Source: a virus (lineage: Duplodnaviria > Heunggongvirae > Uroviricota > Caudoviricetes). From it: a DNA stretch of 64,000 nt. Under the pieces are notes generated by a model. The model saw nothing but the letters and a program-made list of their open reading frames with translations. It ran no database searches and was not told the origin of the DNA. The position numbers and the translations under genes were made by a program. Position 1 is the first letter of the stretch; every line of letters starts with the position of its first letter. Location of the stretch: IMG/VR virus record IMGVR_UViG_3300008262_003982; one strand, written 5' to 3'. Shown piece after piece: positions 808 to 52,517 of this stretch.

Positions 808-2341
808 AATGATATACACTGATCTAATCAAACCAACTACCACAATCAACGAGCAACAGCTTGACGAAATTAGCCTGGACCAGGTTGGTCGAGGCATTGG
901 CGGCCTTGTCGGCGGCATTGGTAAAACAGCAGGCGCTGTGGCAGGTATTCCGCAAGGCCTGGGTCGAGCAATTAAAAAAGGTTATCGTGGATCAGTAAAA
1001 GGCATTGGTGGCGAAGATGATGCTGGCAGCACAGTGCCCGGCGCAGCCTATGGTGACACATCTGGCGCCAAGGCCGGCGGTAAAGCAGAAATGCCAATTG
1101 GATCTAATACGATTAATCCTCGTACCGGCAAGCCCTATGTGCCTAGTGATTTTTCTGGGCCGTCAGGTGGTAGTGCAACAGCAACACCTGCACCTGCTGC
1201 TTCTGGCGGTGGCGGTGGCGCAGCAGCCACACGAGATGCTGACACAGTCAAAACAGAACTGCGCAATTTAGATGCAGCCTACAAAACAAGACGCAATGCG
1301 CTAAACAAAGAACTTGAAGCACTGTCATCAACACCTGCTGGTGATGCTGGCACAGAACCTACTGCAGAACCCGCAACCGGTGCATTGGGATCAGCAATTG
1401 CAGGAACCCCAACTGGTGGCAAGCCTGAAACAGTCAGCATTGGTGGACAAAAGATTTCTCCAAGCGATCCGTTGTATGCCAAAATTGCCGCATCACAAGT
1501 GATGCAAAACAAACCTCTAGTGCAATCCATTCAAGCTCTTGACGCCAAGCAGTTGGAAATAGTCAAACAGATATTGTCTAAAAAGGCCGCTGGTGCATTG
1601 GAAGAACGTTTGCCTCCTACAGTCGCACCTGTGGTACCAAACAAAAGCAGAATGAGCCAAGCATACGACATGGGCAAACAAGCTCTAAAAACCACAGGTT
1701 CAGCAATTGCTGCAACACCACGTGCGCTTTCAACTGCTGCTGGTGCCACAAGAGGTGCATTCACTGGAATGTCACAAGCATACGCTAAAGGCAAACAAGC
1801 TGGTACCAAGTATGTAGGGCAAGGCGAATTGAGCTGGGACGATATACAAGTTGAATTGGCCAATCTGTCAGTAGAAGATGCCAAAGCATTGTTGAGTTTT
1901 GTAAATCAACTGGGAGTCACAGCAGCAGAGCCTGCTCCAGCACCAGCGCCAGCACCAGGAGCGACAGCACATGAACCAAGTGATGTTCAAATAGCTAATT
2001 TAGTTAGAGATGTTCAGAAAGGACCTGATGAAGTATTATCCAGATTTGCCGCAAGAACAGATTTACATCCAAAAATGAAAGCAGTTCTTGATGCTGAGAT
2101 AGCAAAAAGAGCTAGTAGACCACCCGCACCTGCTCCAGCAGACGCCTCTGGCTCAGGAGCAGCCGGCAAGGTTCCTGGATACACAGGTCGCAAGGTCAAA
2201 CTGCCTACAAAGCAAACAAAAACTCTGCCCACAAAGACTAAAAAGAAAAAACTAAGAGAGAAGATTGTTGCAGAAACTTTGACTTGGAGCAAAAACTTTG
2301 ATCCAAGCCGCCACCTAATCAAACAAATCCGTCGTACATAA
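797..2341 (+). CDS. hypothetical Ala/Gly/Pro/Thr-rich protein (possible virion structural/internal protein)
   Basis: 514 aa ORF with low-complexity PAPAPAP and GGGG stretches and a basic C-terminus. Confidence 0.45.
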   Translation: MNAKMIYTDLIKPTTTINEQQLDEISLDQVGRGIGGLVGGIGKTAGAVAGIPQGLGRAIKKGYRGSVKGIGGEDDAGSTVPGAAYGDTSGAKAGGKAEMPIGSNTINPRTGKPYVPSDFSGPSGGSATATPAPAASGGGGGAAATRDADTVKTELRNLDAAYKTRRNALNKELEALSSTPAGDAGTEPTAEPATGALGSAIAGTPTGGKPETVSIGGQKISPSDPLYAKIAASQVMQNKPLVQSIQALDAKQLEIVKQILSKKAAGALEERLPPTVAPVVPNKSRMSQAYDMGKQALKTTGSAIAATPRALSTAAGATRGAFTGMSQAYAKGKQAGTKYVGQGELSWDDIQVELANLSVEDAKALLSFVNQLGVTAAEPAPAPAPAPGATAHEPSDVQIANLVRDVQKGPDEVLSRFAARTDLHPKMKAVLDAEIAKRASRPPAPAPADASGSGAAGKVPGYTGRKVKLPTKQTKTLPTKTKKKKLREKIVAETLTWSKNFDPSRHLIKQIRRT

Positions 2342-40967: not shown

Positions 40968-41762
40968 ATGAAACGTATTTTGACTCTCTCCGTTCTTGCC
41001 GCGGCTGTGCTGGCAACAGGTTGTACTCGTATCGAAACAGGTGAAGTTGGTGTACGTGTTGGCTTTGATAAACAAGTCCAGCAAGGTGAATTAATGCCTG
41101 GCTCGTTTAATCAAACCTTTTGGGGTGATGTTCTTACATTCCCAATCAAGGACGTTAATGTCAAACTGGAGGACATGACACCTGTTGCTAAAGATAACTC
41201 AACAATGAAAGACTTTGATGCAGTGGTTATCTATAACATCAATCAAGCACAGGTAGCCGAGTTGTATAGCCAAAAGAGTCAAGCATTCCATGCTCGGCAC
41301 AACGGCGACATCTACTTGATGTACAACTATATGGTTCAAACCACTCGTAATGCCATCTACAAAGAAGCCCGAAAGTACGAGGCACTAGACATGGCTGATA
41401 ATCGCCAAGTGATGGAACAAGCAATTAAAGAACAAATTCAAAAGAGTTTGGCTGATGAAAAACTTGATGGTAGTTTGGTTGTTGGTCAAGTGTTGATTCG
41501 GAATATTGTACCTGCAGATTCTGTGGTTGCGAGTGCAAATGAGTTGGTTCGTGCCAAGAATGAATTGAAACAAAAAGAAGTTGAAGTTAAGACTGCTAAG
41601 ATGGAAGCAGAACGTATGCAAGCATTGAGTAATCAAGGTGCTCAGTCAATTGCTTACATGCAAGCGCAGGCTATGATGAATATCTCAGAAGGTATCAAGA
41701 ACGGTCGTGTGCAAACAATTGTTGTTCCTGCAAACTTCAATGCGCTGATGATGCAAAAATGA
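40968..41762 (+). CDS. lipoprotein with SPFH/band-7 (prohibitin/stomatin-like) domain
   Basis: Signal peptide plus lipobox LATGC. VGQVLIRNIVPADSVVASANELVRAKNELKQ resembles the HflK/C-stomatin core. Confidence 0.5.
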   Translation: MKRILTLSVLAAAVLATGCTRIETGEVGVRVGFDKQVQQGELMPGSFNQTFWGDVLTFPIKDVNVKLEDMTPVAKDNSTMKDFDAVVIYNINQAQVAELYSQKSQAFHARHNGDIYLMYNYMVQTTRNAIYKEARKYEALDMADNRQVMEQAIKEQIQKSLADEKLDGSLVVGQVLIRNIVPADSVVASANELVRAKNELKQKEVEVKTAKMEAERMQALSNQGAQSIAYMQAQAMMNISEGIKNGRVQTIVVPANFNALMMQK

Positions 41763-42218: not shown

Positions 42219-42983
42219 ATGAAAAAGAAAAACTGGTTTGTGCCTTCGCACAACGAAATGATTGCATACAGTGCCTGTCTACATGTGATCCTGGTCTACT
42301 TTATCTTCAACAGTGAAGCATGGCAGTGGGCAATATGTCTGTTGGTCTACTATATCAAGATGGTAGTCGGAACTGTAACAGTTCATCGGCTGATCACCCA
42401 TCGTTCTTTTCAAGCACCAAAATGGTTTGAATATCTAGGAACATTGATTGCTATTCCTGGCACAACTTTACCAATGTTGTATTGGGTAGCAATACATCGA
42501 GCGCATCATAGACACTCTGACACAAAAGATGATCCGCACTCACCTGCGGTATACGGTTATCTAGCCGTGCAATTTAGACTCACACCTGCTACTCCAAAAT
42601 TAAGTTATGCTCCAGAGATTGTGAAATCCAAATTTCACATGCACATGTACTACAATCATTGGTTGTACACTATCTTGGTCGGGGTGGCAGTTTACATGAT
42701 AGATCCTTATGCAGTAGTGTATGCTTATTTGGTTCCGTCACTATTGTTGCAACATGCCAGTTCACTGACCAACTCTCTCACTCACAGTCCATCAGGATAT
42801 AGAAATTTTGACACACGTGATCAAAGTTCAAATAACCTGCTGGTAGGATATTTGACTGGTGGAGAGGGCTGGCACAACAATCATCACGCCGCTGCCGCAG
42901 ATCCACAGTTTGGCAAAAAATGGTGGGAATTTGATCCTGGATACCGCTTAATTCAATTGGTAAGAACTGACAAAGACCGTTGA
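42219..42983 (+). CDS. membrane fatty-acid (acyl-lipid/acyl-CoA delta-9-type) desaturase, paralogue 1
   Basis: Three His boxes: HRLITHRSF, HRAHHRHSD and GEGWHNNHHA. Multiple TM helices. Confidence 0.8.
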   Translation: MKKKNWFVPSHNEMIAYSACLHVILVYFIFNSEAWQWAICLLVYYIKMVVGTVTVHRLITHRSFQAPKWFEYLGTLIAIPGTTLPMLYWVAIHRAHHRHSDTKDDPHSPAVYGYLAVQFRLTPATPKLSYAPEIVKSKFHMHMYYNHWLYTILVGVAVYMIDPYAVVYAYLVPSLLLQHASSLTNSLTHSPSGYRNFDTRDQSSNNLLVGYLTGGEGWHNNHHAAAADPQFGKKWWEFDPGYRLIQLVRTDKDR

Positions 42984-44240: not shown

Positions 44241-44390
44241 ATAGGTATGTGCTCAATCCCATAAAAAAACTACAAGAAAATCTAGCCCGAGACTTGGTCA
44301 GTCTGGAGGACACAGACTTGGTGTCGGAACAACAACTAGACAAAATTACTGATGCATACGCACAAGTGTATGACATCATCTCCAAAGCAG

Positions 44391-44419
44391 TTGACAAGCC
44401 CAAAGAATAAATATATACT
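44391..44419 (+). promoter_or_regulatory. promoter TTGACA-N17-TATACT driving tmRNA precursor
   Basis: Sequence motif immediately upstream of the acceptor piece. Confidence 0.5.
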
Positions 44420-44455
44420 GCGAGTTATTGCTGTATGAAGCCGAGAGAAAAGTGT

Positions 44456-44490
44456 TCTGGACGGGGGTGCGAATCCCCCCAGGTCCACCA
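44456..44490 (+). ncRNA. ssrA: tmRNA acceptor piece 3' end (T-arm plus 3' acceptor strand plus CCA)
   Basis: T-stem GGGGG/CCCCC with loop TGCGAAT. CAGGTCC pairs with GGGCCTG at 44706, with one G·U. Discriminator A and an encoded CCA. Confidence 0.7.
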
Positions 44491-44705
44491 TAAGGAAGTT
44501 TAATGATAGGTTATGTTTTATTTTTGTTATTTTGGTTAGTGTTTGGTGTATTTTATTTTACACGTGATACCACATTGGACGAAGAGAAAATAAAAAACTG
44601 TGAGTTATGGTAATATGGAAAATTTAGCAAAATTTTTATTAATTGTTTTTCCAATATTATGCTTGTTGTTAACAACATTAAGCGTAGATTAAGTTTCTTT
44701 ATGAT

Positions 44706-44866
44706 GGGCCTGACCTAGATTCGACAGGGCAAAGAGTAACAGAGTGGACAGCACGGTAGGCGATGACCGTAAATCAAGCAAAACTTTTATCTGCAAATGA
44801 TGAAAAATTCTTGATGGCCGCTTAAGGTCGTCTAGGGTAGGAAATACCTCGTAACAGAAACCACCA
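44706..44866 (+). ncRNA. ssrA: tmRNA coding piece (5' acceptor strand, D-like GAUUCGAC, tag ORF)
   Basis: GGGCCUGACCUAGAUUCGACAGGG matches the tmRNA 5' consensus GGGGCUGAUUCUGGAUUCGACGGG. Tag frame GCA AAT GAT GAA AAA TTC TTG ATG GCC GCT TAA gives ANDEKFLMAA. Confidence 0.7.
44793..44825 (+). other. tmRNA tag-peptide reading frame (A)NDEKFLMAA-stop
   Basis: Resume codon GCA. The ...AA-stop ending is typical of SsrA degradation tags. Confidence 0.65.
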
Positions 44867-44894
44867 AAATGGCTGCGAAAGTAGCCATTTTCTT
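44867..44894 (+). terminator. rho-independent terminator
   Basis: AAAATGGCT-GCGAAAGT-AGCCATTTT hairpin followed by TTTCTTT. Confidence 0.6.
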
Positions 44895-44921
44895 TGACAT
44901 TCTCAGTGTTTGTGCTATATA
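44893..44921 (+). promoter_or_regulatory. promoter TTGACA-N17-(T)ATATAAT for porin gene
   Basis: Sequence motif. Confidence 0.5.
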
Positions 44922-44971
44922 ATACTCTATGATCGACATTTGATCATTTCATTAACAAGGAAAAATTACTT

Positions 44972-45862
44972 ATGAAGAAAGTTCTAATTGCGTTGACCCT
45001 GGCAGTTGCTGGTGTTGCAAGCGCACAAGTTGGTATCTATGGTCGTGTTGGCACTTACCTTGACAACACCAAAACTGGTGCTTCCACCGTGCAAGGCATG
45101 GCCAATGACTTGAGTCACTTTGGCATTCGTGCTACTGAAAACTTAGGTGGCGGATTAACAGCTCGTGCCACATACGAGACCGGCATCCAAGCCAACAGCC
45201 CAGACACTGGTACTGACACTAGACTTGGCGATCGCCAAAGCACCGTGGGTATTGCTCACAAAATGGGTAGCGTTGATCTTGGTCGCAATGTTCACACTCA
45301 CTTCTTGGCCATCAGCGACAATGATCCATTTGGCACATTGATTGGTAGCTCAGCTGCCGACGTGCATAACCTGCGTGGTTTGCGTTTGAGCAATGCCGCT
45401 TTCACTTCTGTGAACTTTGGCAATGTCTCTGCTAACTTTGATCGTAGCACTGGTGCTGTTGGCACTGCCGCTGATCCTTATGCCGCATCCGTGATTGCCG
45501 CAGTTGGACCTGCTGTGTTGACTTATGCTCGTTACGAAGCTGGCGCAGAAACCAGTGACGTGTTGGCTGCTCGTGCTAAATTTGGTGCAACCACTGTGTT
45601 TGCCAGCGCAAGCGACAACAAAGGCGTTGCTGCCAACACCAACCGTGCTCAGTTGGTCGGCGTGGCACACAAACTTGGTGGACCAGTCACAGTGAAGGCC
45701 AGCTATGGTCGCATTGAAAATGGCATCAAGAGTTACAACGTAGGTGCTGAGTATGCTTTCAGCAAAAAGACCTATGCACAAGTTTTGTATCGTACAGTTG
45801 AGGGAACCTCAGCAGCCACTGATGTCAAACAAGTAGCAGGCGGGTTGGTCGTACAGTTCTAA
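44972..45862 (+). CDS. outer-membrane general porin (Gram-negative Porin_4-like beta-barrel)
   Basis: Signal peptide MKKVLIALTLAVAGVASA. AQVGIYGRVGTYLDN...ATENLGGGL matches the N-terminal strands of Neisseria/Burkholderia-type porins. C-terminal ...VVQF (terminal Phe). Confidence 0.7.
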   Translation: MKKVLIALTLAVAGVASAQVGIYGRVGTYLDNTKTGASTVQGMANDLSHFGIRATENLGGGLTARATYETGIQANSPDTGTDTRLGDRQSTVGIAHKMGSVDLGRNVHTHFLAISDNDPFGTLIGSSAADVHNLRGLRLSNAAFTSVNFGNVSANFDRSTGAVGTAADPYAASVIAAVGPAVLTYARYEAGAETSDVLAARAKFGATTVFASASDNKGVAANTNRAQLVGVAHKLGGPVTVKASYGRIENGIKSYNVGAEYAFSKKTYAQVLYRTVEGTSAATDVKQVAGGLVVQF

Positions 45863-46380: not shown

Positions 46381-46452
46381 GGAGCGTTCGTCTATCGGTT
46401 AGGACACAAGCCTTTCACGCCTGTAAGAGGGGTTCGATTCCCCTACGCTCTA
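46381..46452 (+). tRNA. tRNA-Glu (TTC)
   Basis: Acceptor GGAGCGT/ACGCTCT, anticodon loop cuUUCac (one mismatch in the anticodon stem), T-arm AGGGGTTCGATTCCCCT, CCA encoded. Confidence 0.6.
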
Positions 46453-47532: not shown

Positions 47533-48504
47533 CTATTCAATGTCAATTTGGCAAAAACTGTTTTTGCCGCCAAATCCAAAATTGGCCTTGAGTATGCGTT
47601 TGCCCGGAAACGGCACAGCATCTACGATGATCCTTGAATCTTTGACTATGAGATCACCAGCTAACACATTGGGTCTTAGGGTTTTTGCACGGTAATCGTC
47701 AAAACTCATGCACATTTCAATGGCGCCGCTGGCTGAGATACAGTGCCCTATGCGGCTTTTGTAGCTGACAATAGGTATGTCTTTGTGAACTAAAGAATTA
47801 AAAACATTGTACTCAAATTGATCTCCCACTGGAGTGCCTGTTGCATGTGCATTCCAAAAATCAATGGTGTCAAAATTGATGCCAGAAATATCTCTGGCCA
47901 ATTGGTGCGCATCACCTGGATTGGCTATGAGTGTGGGGTTGGTACGAAAGATATAATTGCTGATTGTGGCAAATGCACTCATGTTGAATTTTACACTTGG
48001 ATGTTTTATCAACATTGCAGCCATGCCTCTACCCATTCGAAATCCAGTACTGGTTGAGTCAAATGCTCTTCCTGAGGATTGATCCAATGCACCCATACTG
48101 GCAAATCGCCACATGTGAAGTTCGTCATCAACTAAATTATCAGCACAAAAAACAATCACTGGTAATTGGTGTTGCAAGCTCACCATGGATGCAGTGTACA
48201 AGGCATGCATGCTTCCACTGCATTCTGCTACCACATTCGTAACAAATCCGTTGAGATGCAATTTTGTTGCCACAAGACTGACCAAGGCGTCAATGGTACT
48301 GTTCCTAAGTTCAGTAGGACGTCCTCGTTTTTTATTGAGCTCAAAAAAGTCTCGGCTGGGTTTATTTGTTGGTATCAATCCTCCTTTGGAAGAAGTTACC
48401 ATTGGCCAGTGTGGCTGAACAATGTTTGCTAGACATGTGCTATCAACGAATTGTTCAATGTTCCAGTCGAGACTGTGGTGATAGGTTAAGATTTCAGTGA
48501 TCAT
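47533..48504 (-). CDS. beta-ketoacyl-(ACP) synthase-like condensing enzyme (KAS; thiolase fold)
   Basis: FWNAHATGTPVGD (the HGTGT-type His motif), C-terminal NFGFGGKNS (the GFGG motif), and a candidate active-site Cys in AECSGS. 323 aa, shorter than FabF. Confidence 0.65.
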   Translation of the reverse strand: MITEILTYHHSLDWNIEQFVDSTCLANIVQPHWPMVTSSKGGLIPTNKPSRDFFELNKKRGRPTELRNSTIDALVSLVATKLHLNGFVTNVVAECSGSMHALYTASMVSLQHQLPVIVFCADNLVDDELHMWRFASMGALDQSSGRAFDSTSTGFRMGRGMAAMLIKHPSVKFNMSAFATISNYIFRTNPTLIANPGDAHQLARDISGINFDTIDFWNAHATGTPVGDQFEYNVFNSLVHKDIPIVSYKSRIGHCISASGAIEMCMSFDDYRAKTLRPNVLAGDLIVKDSRIIVDAVPFPGKRILKANFGFGGKNSFCQIDIE

Positions 48505-48625: not shown

Positions 48626-49620
48626 GATACATAGGGCAGTTTATTGTCCTGTGCAGTATGGTTCGCCCAGCTGTACGAAGAATAACTGGGGTGACCCAGC
48701 CAAAGGATGTATGCCTACATAAGTCCGCCAGCAATGGTTCATGTAAACAAGCCTGCTCAGGTCCGTGAGGATCCGATCACTGATAAGACCGGTGGTTGTA
48801 ACAATGACGCTGGGAGTATAGGAAAGAGCTGTAACTTACCGGCCCGCAAGGGTAACCGGAGTTGCAGAAAAGTAACAGGTGGTGCTGACTTCTATACAAA
48901 ACCAGCCCAGTTAATTGGTATGAGAAAGGGTAGCGTATCGGTCCGAGGGGTTGCACCCAAGGGCTCGTATGCAGTTTGAGTGGTTGGTGGAGGTACGCGA
49001 AAGCCGAGACCCGACACTGATCGCAAAAGACGTCTGAGTAGTTCGCAAGACAAAAGGAACGTGGTGTGTTGTATTTTGTATTCCAAAAGAGTATGAAGCA
49101 ACTGAGTCAGCACATCGCAGTAGGTTGATATAGCTCATCGTAGAGCAATTCCCTGTTAAGGAATAGGCTGTGGCTTCAAAACCACTATCTAACATAAAAG
49201 CAAAGACTGACTCGGTCATGTGTGAAAAGTATCTAATGCTGTAGCCGCAAGGCAATACAGTCAGACGTAACTCGCAAGGTGAAATCTGTTTATACTGGAA
49301 GTTTCGTAACTGTTTAGCGACAGTGAATGGCTCTAAAGGTCAACGGGATAGATGGTGTAGAGTAGCATGTGATGACAAGACTACTGCCTGTCTTTAAAAA
49401 CGGCGATACTGGTAACAGACTGTGATACATAGCAATATGGTTGCAGTGGAAATCGGAAGAAAGCAGACTCGCAAGGTTTGTAATAATGTCCGAGGTGTTA
49501 CTGGGTTAGGATGTATTCTCAGTCCGCCACTTTATATACAAACGCACTCCGTACCCGTTGGTGGTTGCTCAATTCAATGAATTGTTCCCCAAGCATAGAG
49601 TGTGTTTCTATATAAATAAT
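48626..49620 (+). ncRNA. candidate large structured ncRNA (about 1 kb, GNRA tetraloop-rich)
   Basis: Sits downstream of the promoter at 48596. No credible ORF. Repeated cGCAAg/cGAAAg hairpins: CCCGCAAGGG, GCGAAAGC, GCCGCAAGGC and CTCGCAAGG, the last occurring twice. Confidence 0.4.
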
Positions 49621-50278: not shown

Positions 50279-50368
50279 GGAGCAATTGATGCTATGGCGT
50301 GTGCATCGGCGGACTGTAAATCCGTCCCCTCGTGGTAAACATTCTTGGTTCGACTCCAAGTTGCTCCA
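50279..50368 (+). tRNA. tRNA-Tyr (GTA), type II
   Basis: Acceptor GGAGCAA/TTGCTCC, anticodon loop cuGUAaa, long variable arm, T-arm CTTGGTTCGACTCCAAG. Confidence 0.8.
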
Positions 50369-50411
50369 CCATATTTTTGTAGTAGGCTCGAGTGCCTACT
50401 AAGTAGATTAT

Positions 50412-52420: not shown

Positions 52421-52509
52421 GCCCCTATAGTTTAATGGTAAAACGGCGGATTTATATCCCGTAAGCAACAGATAATTGGTTCATCTGGGTTCGACTCCCG
52501 GTGGGGGTA
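52421..52509 (+). tRNA. type-II tRNA, anticodon uncertain (possibly TAT)
   Basis: Acceptor GCCCCTA/TGGGGGT and T-arm CTGGGTTCGACTCCCGG are good. The anticodon arm is irregular. Confidence 0.4.
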
Positions 52510-52517
52510 CCAAACAT

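Follow-up and report, generated by a model that had tools for sequence, protein, structure and literature searches.

A phage two-piece tmRNA gene of the beta type with a probable small protein-coding cassette in its intervening sequence

Among described systems, the closest to the gene studied here is the betaproteobacterial two-piece transfer-messenger RNA (tmRNA; Rfam family RF01850), a lineage for which PMC9004378 cites Sharkady and Williams 2004 and in which an acceptor piece, an intervening sequence (IVS) and a coding piece follow one another. Two-piece tmRNAs are also documented in phages. They made up 53 of 133 distinct phage tmRNAs in PMC9004378, 50 of the 53 coming from aquatic phages, with cases in OM43 phage Melnitz, pelagimyophages and cyanophages; the same source describes an OM43 phage with alpha-type ssrA and a glutamine riboswitch reported in the ssrA gene of Melnitz. 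Huge phages carry tmRNAs and SmpB (PMC7162821), and 79 phage sequences are held in the tmRNA database of PMC11915505 (2025). This last source also describes intron-form tmRNA genes with homing-endonuclease genes in a group I intron and a permuted tmRNA with tRNA-Ala in its IVS, a nested tRNA gene and a repetitive element being the only IVS curiosities noted there. Here we describe the permuted ssrA gene of a Caudoviricetes DNA of 64,000 nucleotides (nt), IMG/VR virus record IMGVR_UViG_3300008262_003982. The window means this whole stretch, at its full length.

We consider it likely that a jumbo phage carries here a functional two-piece tmRNA gene of the beta type, the IVS of which doubles as a small protein-coding cassette. 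The gene shares with the betaproteobacterial two-piece tmRNA the order acceptor piece, IVS, coding piece, as well as P1, the T-arm, P2, the P3 hairpin, the tag consensus ANDE.F.MAA and the terminal hairpin. Unlike the betaproteobacterial gene, it has the T-loop UGCGAAU and a long, stem-closed and apparently coding IVS, and its acceptor arm was found only in viral contigs and two contigs of metagenome-assembled genomes (MAGs). With other phage two-piece tmRNAs (Melnitz, pelagimyophages, cyanophages, huge phages and Menderavirus) it shares a permuted ssrA located among tRNA genes in large aquatic or T4-like phages. The tmRNA itself is of an already known sort: phage two-piece tmRNAs are documented, and freshwater viromes contain this lineage in abundance. 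More surprising is the 215-nt IVS with the putative small protein genes nested in it. No protein-coding IVS has been described for the known phage two-piece tmRNAs, or for any tmRNA, in the literature searched, the coverage of which was incomplete, whereas the IVS of the window appears to be coding.

In the phage T4 tRNA region and in the E. coli tRNA-tufB operon, tRNA-processing enzymes cut a protein message out of a precursor. Unlike these, the window has its putative message between the halves of one functional RNA, with the message ends paired in a stem that continues the acceptor stem. The intron-form tmRNAs and the tmRNA with tRNA-Ala in its IVS resemble the window gene in that another gene sits within a part missing from the mature RNA, inside a loop that conserved pairing closes. 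Unlike the intron-form genes, the window family has no intron, splicing or endonuclease. Its inserts are small genes for various proteins, read in the direction of the tmRNA; a Shine-Dalgarno sequence immediately follows CCA, and the stop codon is often 1 nt before the predicted RNase P site.

ARAGORN called a permuted tmRNA at 44398-44916 (plus strand). In an Rfam covariance-model search, family RF04321 (tmRNA_permuted) matched 44429-44825 with 115 bits (gathering score 47, E 1e-21), and the match was complete (model positions 1-213). The sequence-only reading of this stretch had proposed a permuted two-piece tmRNA in phage DNA, which is borne out by ARAGORN, RF04321 and the comparative covariation described below; the sequence elements that it quoted were all found at the positions it gave (Table 1). 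The T-arm, the 3' acceptor strand and CCA precede the 5' acceptor strand and the tag. A standard gene order, already ruled out in that reading, is excluded by two results. The one-piece model RF00023, which needs 47 bits, gave only a 5'-truncated match of 27.1 bits, which lies on the acceptor piece, and nothing like a tRNA 3' end follows the tag: ARAGORN and Rfam found no T-arm or CCA downstream of 44866 and nothing tRNA-like between 44866 and 46381. The stretch 3' of the tmRNA consists of the terminator, a promoter and a porin gene, and the next tRNA lies at 46381.

Table 1. Features of the tmRNA locus in the window, followed by features of related genes.
Feature	Position	Strand	Basis or remark
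Sigma70-like promoter of the pre-tmRNA, TTGACA-17-TATACT	44391..44419	+	consensus scan 11/12; putative function
Acceptor piece	44427..44490	+	ARAGORN, RF04321 alignment, precursor fold; 5' end placed from promoter and model start
P2 distal strand UGCUGU, acceptor piece	44429-44434	+	
3' tRNA domain, CCA at its end	44452-44490	+	ARAGORN
P2 proximal strand UGUUCUG, acceptor piece	44453-44459	+	
T-arm GGGGG-UGCGAAU-CCCCC	44463-44479	+	
Acceptor 3' strand CAGGUCC	44480-44486	+	
Discriminator A; CCA	44487; 44488-44490	+	
IVS, 215 nt between the tmRNA pieces	44491..44705	+	ARAGORN domain coordinates
Closing stem 5' strand UAAGGAAGUUUAAU	44491..44504	+	pairs with 44688-44701
IVS ORF1, 36 aa, MIGYVLFLLFWLVFGVFYFTRDTTLDEEKIKNCELW, one transmembrane-like segment	44503..44613	+	ORF list, homologues
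IVS ORF2, 25 aa, MENLAKFLLIVFPILCLLLTTLSVD, hydrophobic	44615..44692	+	ORF list, L131-133 comparison; weaker evidence than ORF1
Closing stem 3' strand AUUAAGUUUCUUUA (44688-44701), then leader UGAU (44702-44705)	44688..44705	+	fold, family comparison
Coding piece	44706..44895	+	ARAGORN, RF04321, beta_tmRNA partial match, fold, covariation
5' tRNA domain	44706-44732	+	ARAGORN
Acceptor 5' strand GGGCCUG	44706-44712	+	coding piece begins at G44706
D-loop analogue with GAUUCGAC		+	in the coding piece, after GGGCCUG
P2 proximal strand CAGGGCA, coding piece	44725-44731	+	
P2 distal strand ACAGCA, coding piece	44748-44753	+	
P3 hairpin CGGU/ACCG	44754-44769	+	
Tag frame GCA AAU GAU GAA AAA UUC UUG AUG GCC GCU UAA = ANDEKFLMAA-stop	44793..44825	+	ARAGORN
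P5-like helix GAUGGCC/GGUCGUC, stop codon in loop	44813..44832	+	precursor and co-fold minimum free energy structures
Terminator hairpin (AAAAUGGCU..AGCCAUUUU), then U-rich run	44866..44891	+	fold and alignment to beta_tmRNA terminal hairpin
Upstream 53-aa ORF	44249..44410	+	same family as the IVS ORF of L110 and L085
tmRNA of L131	10115-10509	minus	
Permuted tmRNA of phage Yut2 (L134, PV130723.1)	1476-1849		overlaps annotated tRNA-Leu and tRNA-Thr at its ends

ORF, open reading frame; aa, amino acids; L followed by a number denotes a locus compared with the window.

Relatives were collected with an exact 25-mer (T-loop, 3' strand of the T-stem, 3' acceptor strand and ACCA), which is present in at least 116 IMG/VR contigs. 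ARAGORN called a permuted tmRNA in 88 of these contigs; the tag frame was intact in all 88, and the tags were conserved across the family. Pattern matching recovered both tmRNA pieces in 101 loci, which correspond to 83 distinct sequences. A set collected with a fixed 25-mer under-samples diversity, and P1 and the T-arm are invariant in it because the search pattern fixed both. Syntenic relatives with a variable P1 (L119, L121 and others) were found through the neighbouring porin gene.

The acceptor stem GGGCCUG/CAGGUCC comprises seven pairs between the two pieces, including G3.U70, and is followed by discriminator A73. G3.U70 and A73 are the alanine identity set recognised by alanyl-tRNA synthetase (AlaRS). 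The minimum free energy (MFE) fold of the 469-nt precursor recovered P1, the T-arm, both P2 helices, P3, P5 and the IVS stem. In the 83 distinct sequences, 99.5% of the cells of the proximal P2 helix were paired (32-55% with a slid partner), with 19 double-change cells, and 89.5% of those of the distal P2 helix (27-46% with a slid partner), with 45 double-change cells. These counts were made on the well-aligned part of the family alignment; the region after the tag aligns badly (poor RNAalifold consensus). P1 and P3 were read straight from the sequences; one-column MAFFT shifts distort both in pair counts. At least ten Watson-Crick variants of P3 occur (CGGU/ACCG, CGGC/GCCG, CAUC/GAUG, CGAC/GUCG, CGGG/CCCG, CACC/GGUG, CAGC/GCUG, CAAG/CUUG, CGUC/GACG and CAGU/ACUG). 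P1 reads GGGGAUG/CAUCUCC in L119/L126 (T-stem CCGGG/CCCGG) and GGGGGUG/CACCUCC in L121/L122 (T-stem GCGGG/CCCGC), and G3.U70 is retained in all of these while P1 positions 4-6 change on both sides. The acceptor pairing that had been read from the letters was recovered in the precursor fold, as was the P2 pairing, which is backed by covariation.

These data bear on the idea that the locus is a non-functional remnant of a host ssrA gene, either an attP/attL fragment or a piece left by imprecise excision. Such remnants have a precedent, as phages often integrate at the 3' ends of tmRNA genes and prophages contain fragments of ssrA (PMC9004378). However, both pieces of the window gene are complete, with their own promoter and terminator, compensatory changes preserve the helices in more than 80 distinct sequences, and no ARAGORN call had a broken tag frame. 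The acceptor arm is moreover absent from the genomes of 185,579 species except for the two MAG contigs, one of which is syntenic with the window. A remnant is scarcely credible on this evidence.

The tag ANDEKFLMAA proposed in the sequence-only reading is the one that ARAGORN framed. It resumes on an Ala codon and ends in ..MAA before the stop codon, which lies in the loop of the P5-like helix, and the syntenic L121 has the identical tag. The bases before the GCA resume codon are UAUCU, with U at -5 and A at -4, the same as in E. coli tmRNA. Transcription is predicted to start at about 44426-44428, and the -10 region of the promoter is also kept in the syntenic relatives L119, L121 and L126. 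The terminator scan itself gave the 44866-44891 hairpin as a minus-strand site only.

A decoy RNA, competing with the host tmRNA or SmpB and rescuing no ribosomes, would be compatible with the unusual family T-loop UGCGAAU, and a tmRNA-like RNA of mycobacteriophage DS6A that has no coding sequence is reported to inhibit endogenous tmRNA on expression in E. coli (PMC11915505). A decoy is nevertheless very improbable here, given a complete tag frame kept with its Ala resume codon, U/A at -5/-4, a proteolysis-type ..MAA end and a stop in the P5 loop, and given tags that are conserved across the family. Within this homologous tmRNA family the T-loop takes three forms: UGCGAAU in the window and the contigs with the 25-mer, GGCAGUG in L131-133 and the canonical UUCGACU in L119 and L121. 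The 3' end of the acceptor piece of L119 and L121 (tmRNA at about 2117-2445) encodes ACC-U and not CCA.

The beta_tmRNA model RF01850 (gathering score 84) matched the coding piece at 44649-44893 with 65.2 bits, tag consensus and terminal hairpin included, and the acceptor piece separately with 18.7 bits. The model did not bridge the 215-nt IVS, so there was no single match above the threshold in the window. L121, which has the exact window tag, promoter and terminator, about 90% identical flanking DNA and an IVS of 24 nt, scored 151.5 bits on the same model. Because of the coding-piece match and the score of L121, we assign the window gene to the beta type of two-piece tmRNA. RF01849 (alpha_tmRNA) matched the window with 57.4 bits (gathering score 50). 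An alpha-type assignment was rejected, because short-IVS relatives score far higher on the beta model; the alpha_tmRNA score probably reflects tolerance of inserts and not the subtype.

The sequence-only reading had taken the IVS for an AT-rich spacer that would be excised. This description leaves something out: a conserved closing stem and two small ORFs with a Shine-Dalgarno sequence make up the 215 nt. All 12 scored positions of the closing stem are paired in the window, 14 base pairs (bp) form when the sequence is read further, and the same stem appears in the MFE fold. The leader UGAU stands opposite ACCA, so that the acceptor stem is lengthened into a long, nearly continuous helix. Throughout the family the leader ..UUUAUGAU is conserved. 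An in-register stem between trailer (after CCA) and leader (before G1) occurs in 73 of the 77 distinct family IVSs. Of its 12 positions, 10.6 are paired on average, compared to 8.5 in chimeras of unrelated ends. Examples of covarying closing stems are AAGCACA/UGUGCUU, AAGUAUAAUC/GAUUAUACUU and AAGAAUUCU/AGAAUUCUU. The shortest family IVSs (24-28 nt) are made of the closing stem and a tiny loop only.

The Shine-Dalgarno sequence AAGGA of ORF1 begins 2 nt past CCA and lies 6 nt upstream of the start codon. Its product has a maximum 15-residue hydropathy of 2.61. ORF1 homologues were sought by degenerate DNA patterns, and one was found in the IVS of L057/L130, with 36 codons, no indel and about 77% DNA identity. 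Ten of the differing codons are synonymous and eight non-synonymous, and the differences fall 7/3/15 on the three codon positions. ORF1 is nearly identical in L131-133. The ATG of ORF2 is 1 nt past the ORF1 stop, and the ORF2 stop lies inside the closing stem; like ORF1, it encodes one strongly hydrophobic segment (hydropathy 2.81), and in L131-133 it shows two amino-acid changes and one synonymous change. A likeness of ORF2 to the IVS peptide of L036 was not significant and was rejected.

Coding signatures extend across the family. In 30 of the 77 distinct IVSs there is an ORF of at least 20 aa that starts no more than 25 nt from CCA and covers at least half of the IVS. A Shine-Dalgarno sequence is found within the first 14 nt in 28 of these 30 IVSs, compared to 5 of the 47 IVSs without such an ORF (table 28/5/2/42), and in 16 of the 30 the stop codon is a conserved UGA with its last base 1 nt before G1 of the coding piece. 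Among the 14 distinct IVSs of at least 171 nt, 13 are 82-97% ORF, with p values of 0.007 or lower for all but the window (ORF length against mononucleotide shuffles). The IVS products measure 21-151 aa and are mostly unrelated to one another; some of the ORFs of 21-24 aa are weakly supported. Two IVS proteins match Pfam, one to GNAT (28.5 bits, threshold 27) and one to CxxCxxCC (26.6 bits, threshold 23), and two more pairs of homologous IVS ORFs show a third-position excess (2/3/9 and 13/11/36). The complete RF04321 model bridges even long IVSs, up to the 491 nt of L060. ARAGORN was silent on L005, L016, L054, L057, L060, L078, L084 and L116, with IVSs of about 250 nt or longer, and RF04321 found these genes complete. 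Otherwise unrelated IVS proteins of L054/L084, L078, L060, L116 and L015 share the N-terminus M(R/Q)I(N/K/T)E(I/L), which suggests cassette exchange downstream of a common 5' segment.

The two halves might also be separate transcription units, with the IVS genes as ordinary neighbours under a promoter of their own and no common precursor. The length that IVSs with complete genes can reach (491 nt) fits this arrangement, and middle or late promoters specific to phages would escape a consensus scan. However, the sigma70 consensus scan found no promoter-like or terminator-like site on the plus strand within 44491-44705, and a conserved trailer-leader stem with covarying positions can only be understood if a single RNA contains both strands. 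Nor is there room for separate signals, with Shine-Dalgarno sequences 2-3 nt past CCA and the UGA stop so often 1 nt before G1. We regard separate units as quite unlikely.

Cassettes and tmRNA backbones are combined in different ways among the relatives. L121 has the flanks and the tag of the window around an IVS without ORFs. L128 has the same tRNA-like domain as the window and 94.6% identical upstream DNA, and its 218-nt IVS encodes a different protein of 64 aa; this ORF was independently called as a gene in the ENA assembly. In L129 the porin is present without any tmRNA. Conversely, the three metagenome contigs L131-133 carry the ORF1 and ORF2 cassette of the window, with about four substitutions, in a different tmRNA backbone, with the T-arm GCGGG-GGCAGUG-CCCGC, different P2 and P3, the tag ANDSQFALAA and different flanks. 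The ORF at 44249-44410, immediately upstream in the window, is 53% identical over 43 aa (E 3e-16) to the IVS ORF of L110, and tblastx to the L110 IVS agrees; the same small gene family is outside the tmRNA in the window and inside the tmRNA IVS in L110 and L085. Because of the swaps seen in L121, L128 and L131-133 and of the family of the 44249-44410 ORF, the IVS appears to behave as an exchangeable slot bounded by a conserved stem.

Several points weigh against a functional tmRNA gene with a coding IVS. In the RNA, the window T-stem GGGGG/CCCCC encloses a 7-nt loop (UGCGAAU) with G at the position of U55, a position that is normally U in tRNAs and tmRNAs. For a pseudoknot PK1 upstream of the resume codon, only the P3 hairpin was recognised. 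The single precursor and the processing sites are inferred. A tblastn search of the window and the fetched loci with an approximate E. coli SmpB query gave nothing below E 0.5, a weak negative; with no smpB found in the window, SmpB of the host or a copy encoded elsewhere would be needed. In the IVS, the length of ORF1 alone is no greater than chance for the region (shuffle p 0.16), the evidence for ORF2 consists of three substitutions in one group of relatives, and a 41-aa ORF on the opposite strand (44553-44678) overlaps the IVS. The Shine-Dalgarno sequence of ORF1 (44492-44496) and the first two bases of its AUG (44503-44505) are within the 5' strand of the closing stem, and this sequestration may limit translation.

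The points concerning the IVS would equally suit an ordinary phage two-piece tmRNA in which the IVS is a mere processed spacer, and its ORFs are untranslated and owe their conservation to recent common descent or to RNA structure. The chance-like length of ORF1, the burial of its start signals in the stem, the longer ORF on the opposite strand and the lack of any Pfam or PHROG match for ORF1 and ORF2 all agree with such a spacer. On the other side, the ORF1 homologue of L057/L130, about 77% identical at the DNA level, is free of indels over its 36 codons and differs mostly at third positions (7/3/15), and Shine-Dalgarno sequences co-occur with ORFs across the family. Longer IVS ORFs match Pfam domains and show coding-type substitutions, and the L128 ORF was called independently. 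A spacer of this kind is unlikely, and a functional tmRNA gene with a coding IVS remains the reading that we prefer.

The sequences themselves show a complete two-piece gene maintained by selection, the clamp stem, coding signatures in the IVS and mosaic exchange of cassettes; the course of events that follows is drawn from established tmRNA and tRNA biology. A single transcript would begin at the promoter (44391-44419) and end at the terminator (44866-44891). The trailer-leader stem of about 14 bp would extend the acceptor stem and clamp the halves together despite the 215-nt insert. RNase P would cut 5' of G44706, and exonucleases would trim the 3' end to CCA at 44490, so that P1 and P2 would hold together two pieces, the acceptor piece being about 64 nt and the coding piece about 190 nt long. 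AlaRS would charge the RNA through G3.U70 and A73. With SmpB, probably that of the host, the tmRNA would rescue stalled ribosomes and tag proteins with ANDEKFLMAA. Rescue of this kind could plausibly be of advantage to a phage that breaks down the mRNA of its host and supplies tRNAs of its own. The released or unprocessed IVS would act as mRNA for two small membrane peptides. Because the Shine-Dalgarno sequence and the AUG are in the stem, ribosomes may be able to translate only the nascent transcript, or only after the stem has unfolded. Across the phage family, the stem-bounded loop would be a slot where unrelated genes insert and exchange.

A further proposal, that the IVS is a stem-clamped, insertion-tolerant slot with exchangeable cassettes and that translation of the nested genes is mechanistically coupled to maturation of the tmRNA, is tentative, and we hold it to be rather doubtful as a whole. 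Coupling could work by mutual exclusion or by timed release of the message by tRNA-processing enzymes. For the window itself, coupling of peptide synthesis to tmRNA maturation is speculation.

The 25-mer was searched in the cellular genomes of the 185,579 species and was found in two short MAG contigs only, labelled Crocinitomicaceae and Haliscomenobacter. Because one of them (L118) shows the same tRNA-tmRNA-tRNA synteny as the window, the two contigs are probably misbinned phage. A blastn search (distant mode) of 44380-44920 against INPHARED phages gave no match; L121, which has a canonical T-arm, did reach cultured phages when used as the query. These are Stenotrophomonas phages (Menderavirus, e.g. 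Yut2, Moby and Mendera) with a related permuted ssrA that is already annotated. The Yut2 tmRNA has the tag VAANDDSYTVRIAA and scores 92.8 bits on beta_tmRNA; it shares the 5' motif GUUAUGGUUGUAUGAAGC of the window and the same trailer-leader stem, around an IVS of 57 nt. In several Menderavirus sister records the tmRNA region is without annotation. The view that a phage copy of a two-piece tmRNA is unusual was overstated in the sequence-only reading, considering the share of two-piece genes among phage tmRNAs (53 of 133 in PMC9004378), the IMG/VR contigs with the 25-mer and the cultured Stenotrophomonas phages.

The window encodes 28 tRNAs, and its family B DNA polymerase is closest to those of jumbo phages (Sinorhizobium phage Phosso 51%, Agrobacterium phage Atu_ph07 47% and GAP32/CBB-like phages 42%); relatives include IMG/VR contigs of 342 and 347 kb. 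The gene had also been thought to hint at the host clade. This hint is weak: the gene is of the beta type, yet its acceptor arm is in no cellular genome but the two MAG contigs. The cultured relatives of the window tmRNA infect a gammaproteobacterium (Stenotrophomonas), a host with a one-piece tmRNA. Because of this host and of the OM43 phage with alpha-type ssrA, the tmRNA type is a weak host indicator. A gene for a Gram-negative porin (Porin_4; 44894-45862, plus strand) follows directly after the tmRNA terminator, behind a promoter that matches the sigma70 consensus at 12/12 positions. It has more than 120 metagenome homologues (85-96% identity), and in relatives the same porin follows genes for TctC, a 2OG-Fe(II) oxygenase and TauD. 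Porin_4 and the TctC neighbours are compatible with a Burkholderiales host, which is only suggestive.

Other features were noted in the neighbourhood. A full-length GOLLD RNA (RF02032, 204 bits, E 3.5e-56) lies within the tRNA region at 49061-49525 (plus strand), with a nested tRNA-like Rfam match at 49124-49194 (50.6 bits) that ARAGORN did not call. Auxiliary genes for membrane and lipid functions are found near the tmRNA at 40968-41762, 42219-42983 and 47533-48504 (minus strand); they are SPFH/Band 7, fatty-acid desaturase and beta-ketoacyl synthase-like genes. Two tRNAs called by ARAGORN at 52421-52512 and 50279-50371 are a 92-nt tRNA-Ile(UAU) and a 93-nt tRNA-Tyr, the Ile one being unusually long for its class.

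The gaps in ARAGORN calls at long IVSs, together with a beta_tmRNA model that did not bridge the IVS of the window, imply that annotation pipelines undercount or mis-subtype such genes, and tmRNA type is a poor predictor of the host here. The locus would be a compact case of a gene within an RNA gene, with a message that RNase P and 3' trimming would set free. It offers a natural system for asking how much insertion permuted RNA genes tolerate, and whether tRNA-type processing may act as a timer for small membrane peptides. If the proposed coupling is true, the production of two small membrane peptides would be tied to tmRNA biogenesis in the phage of the window.

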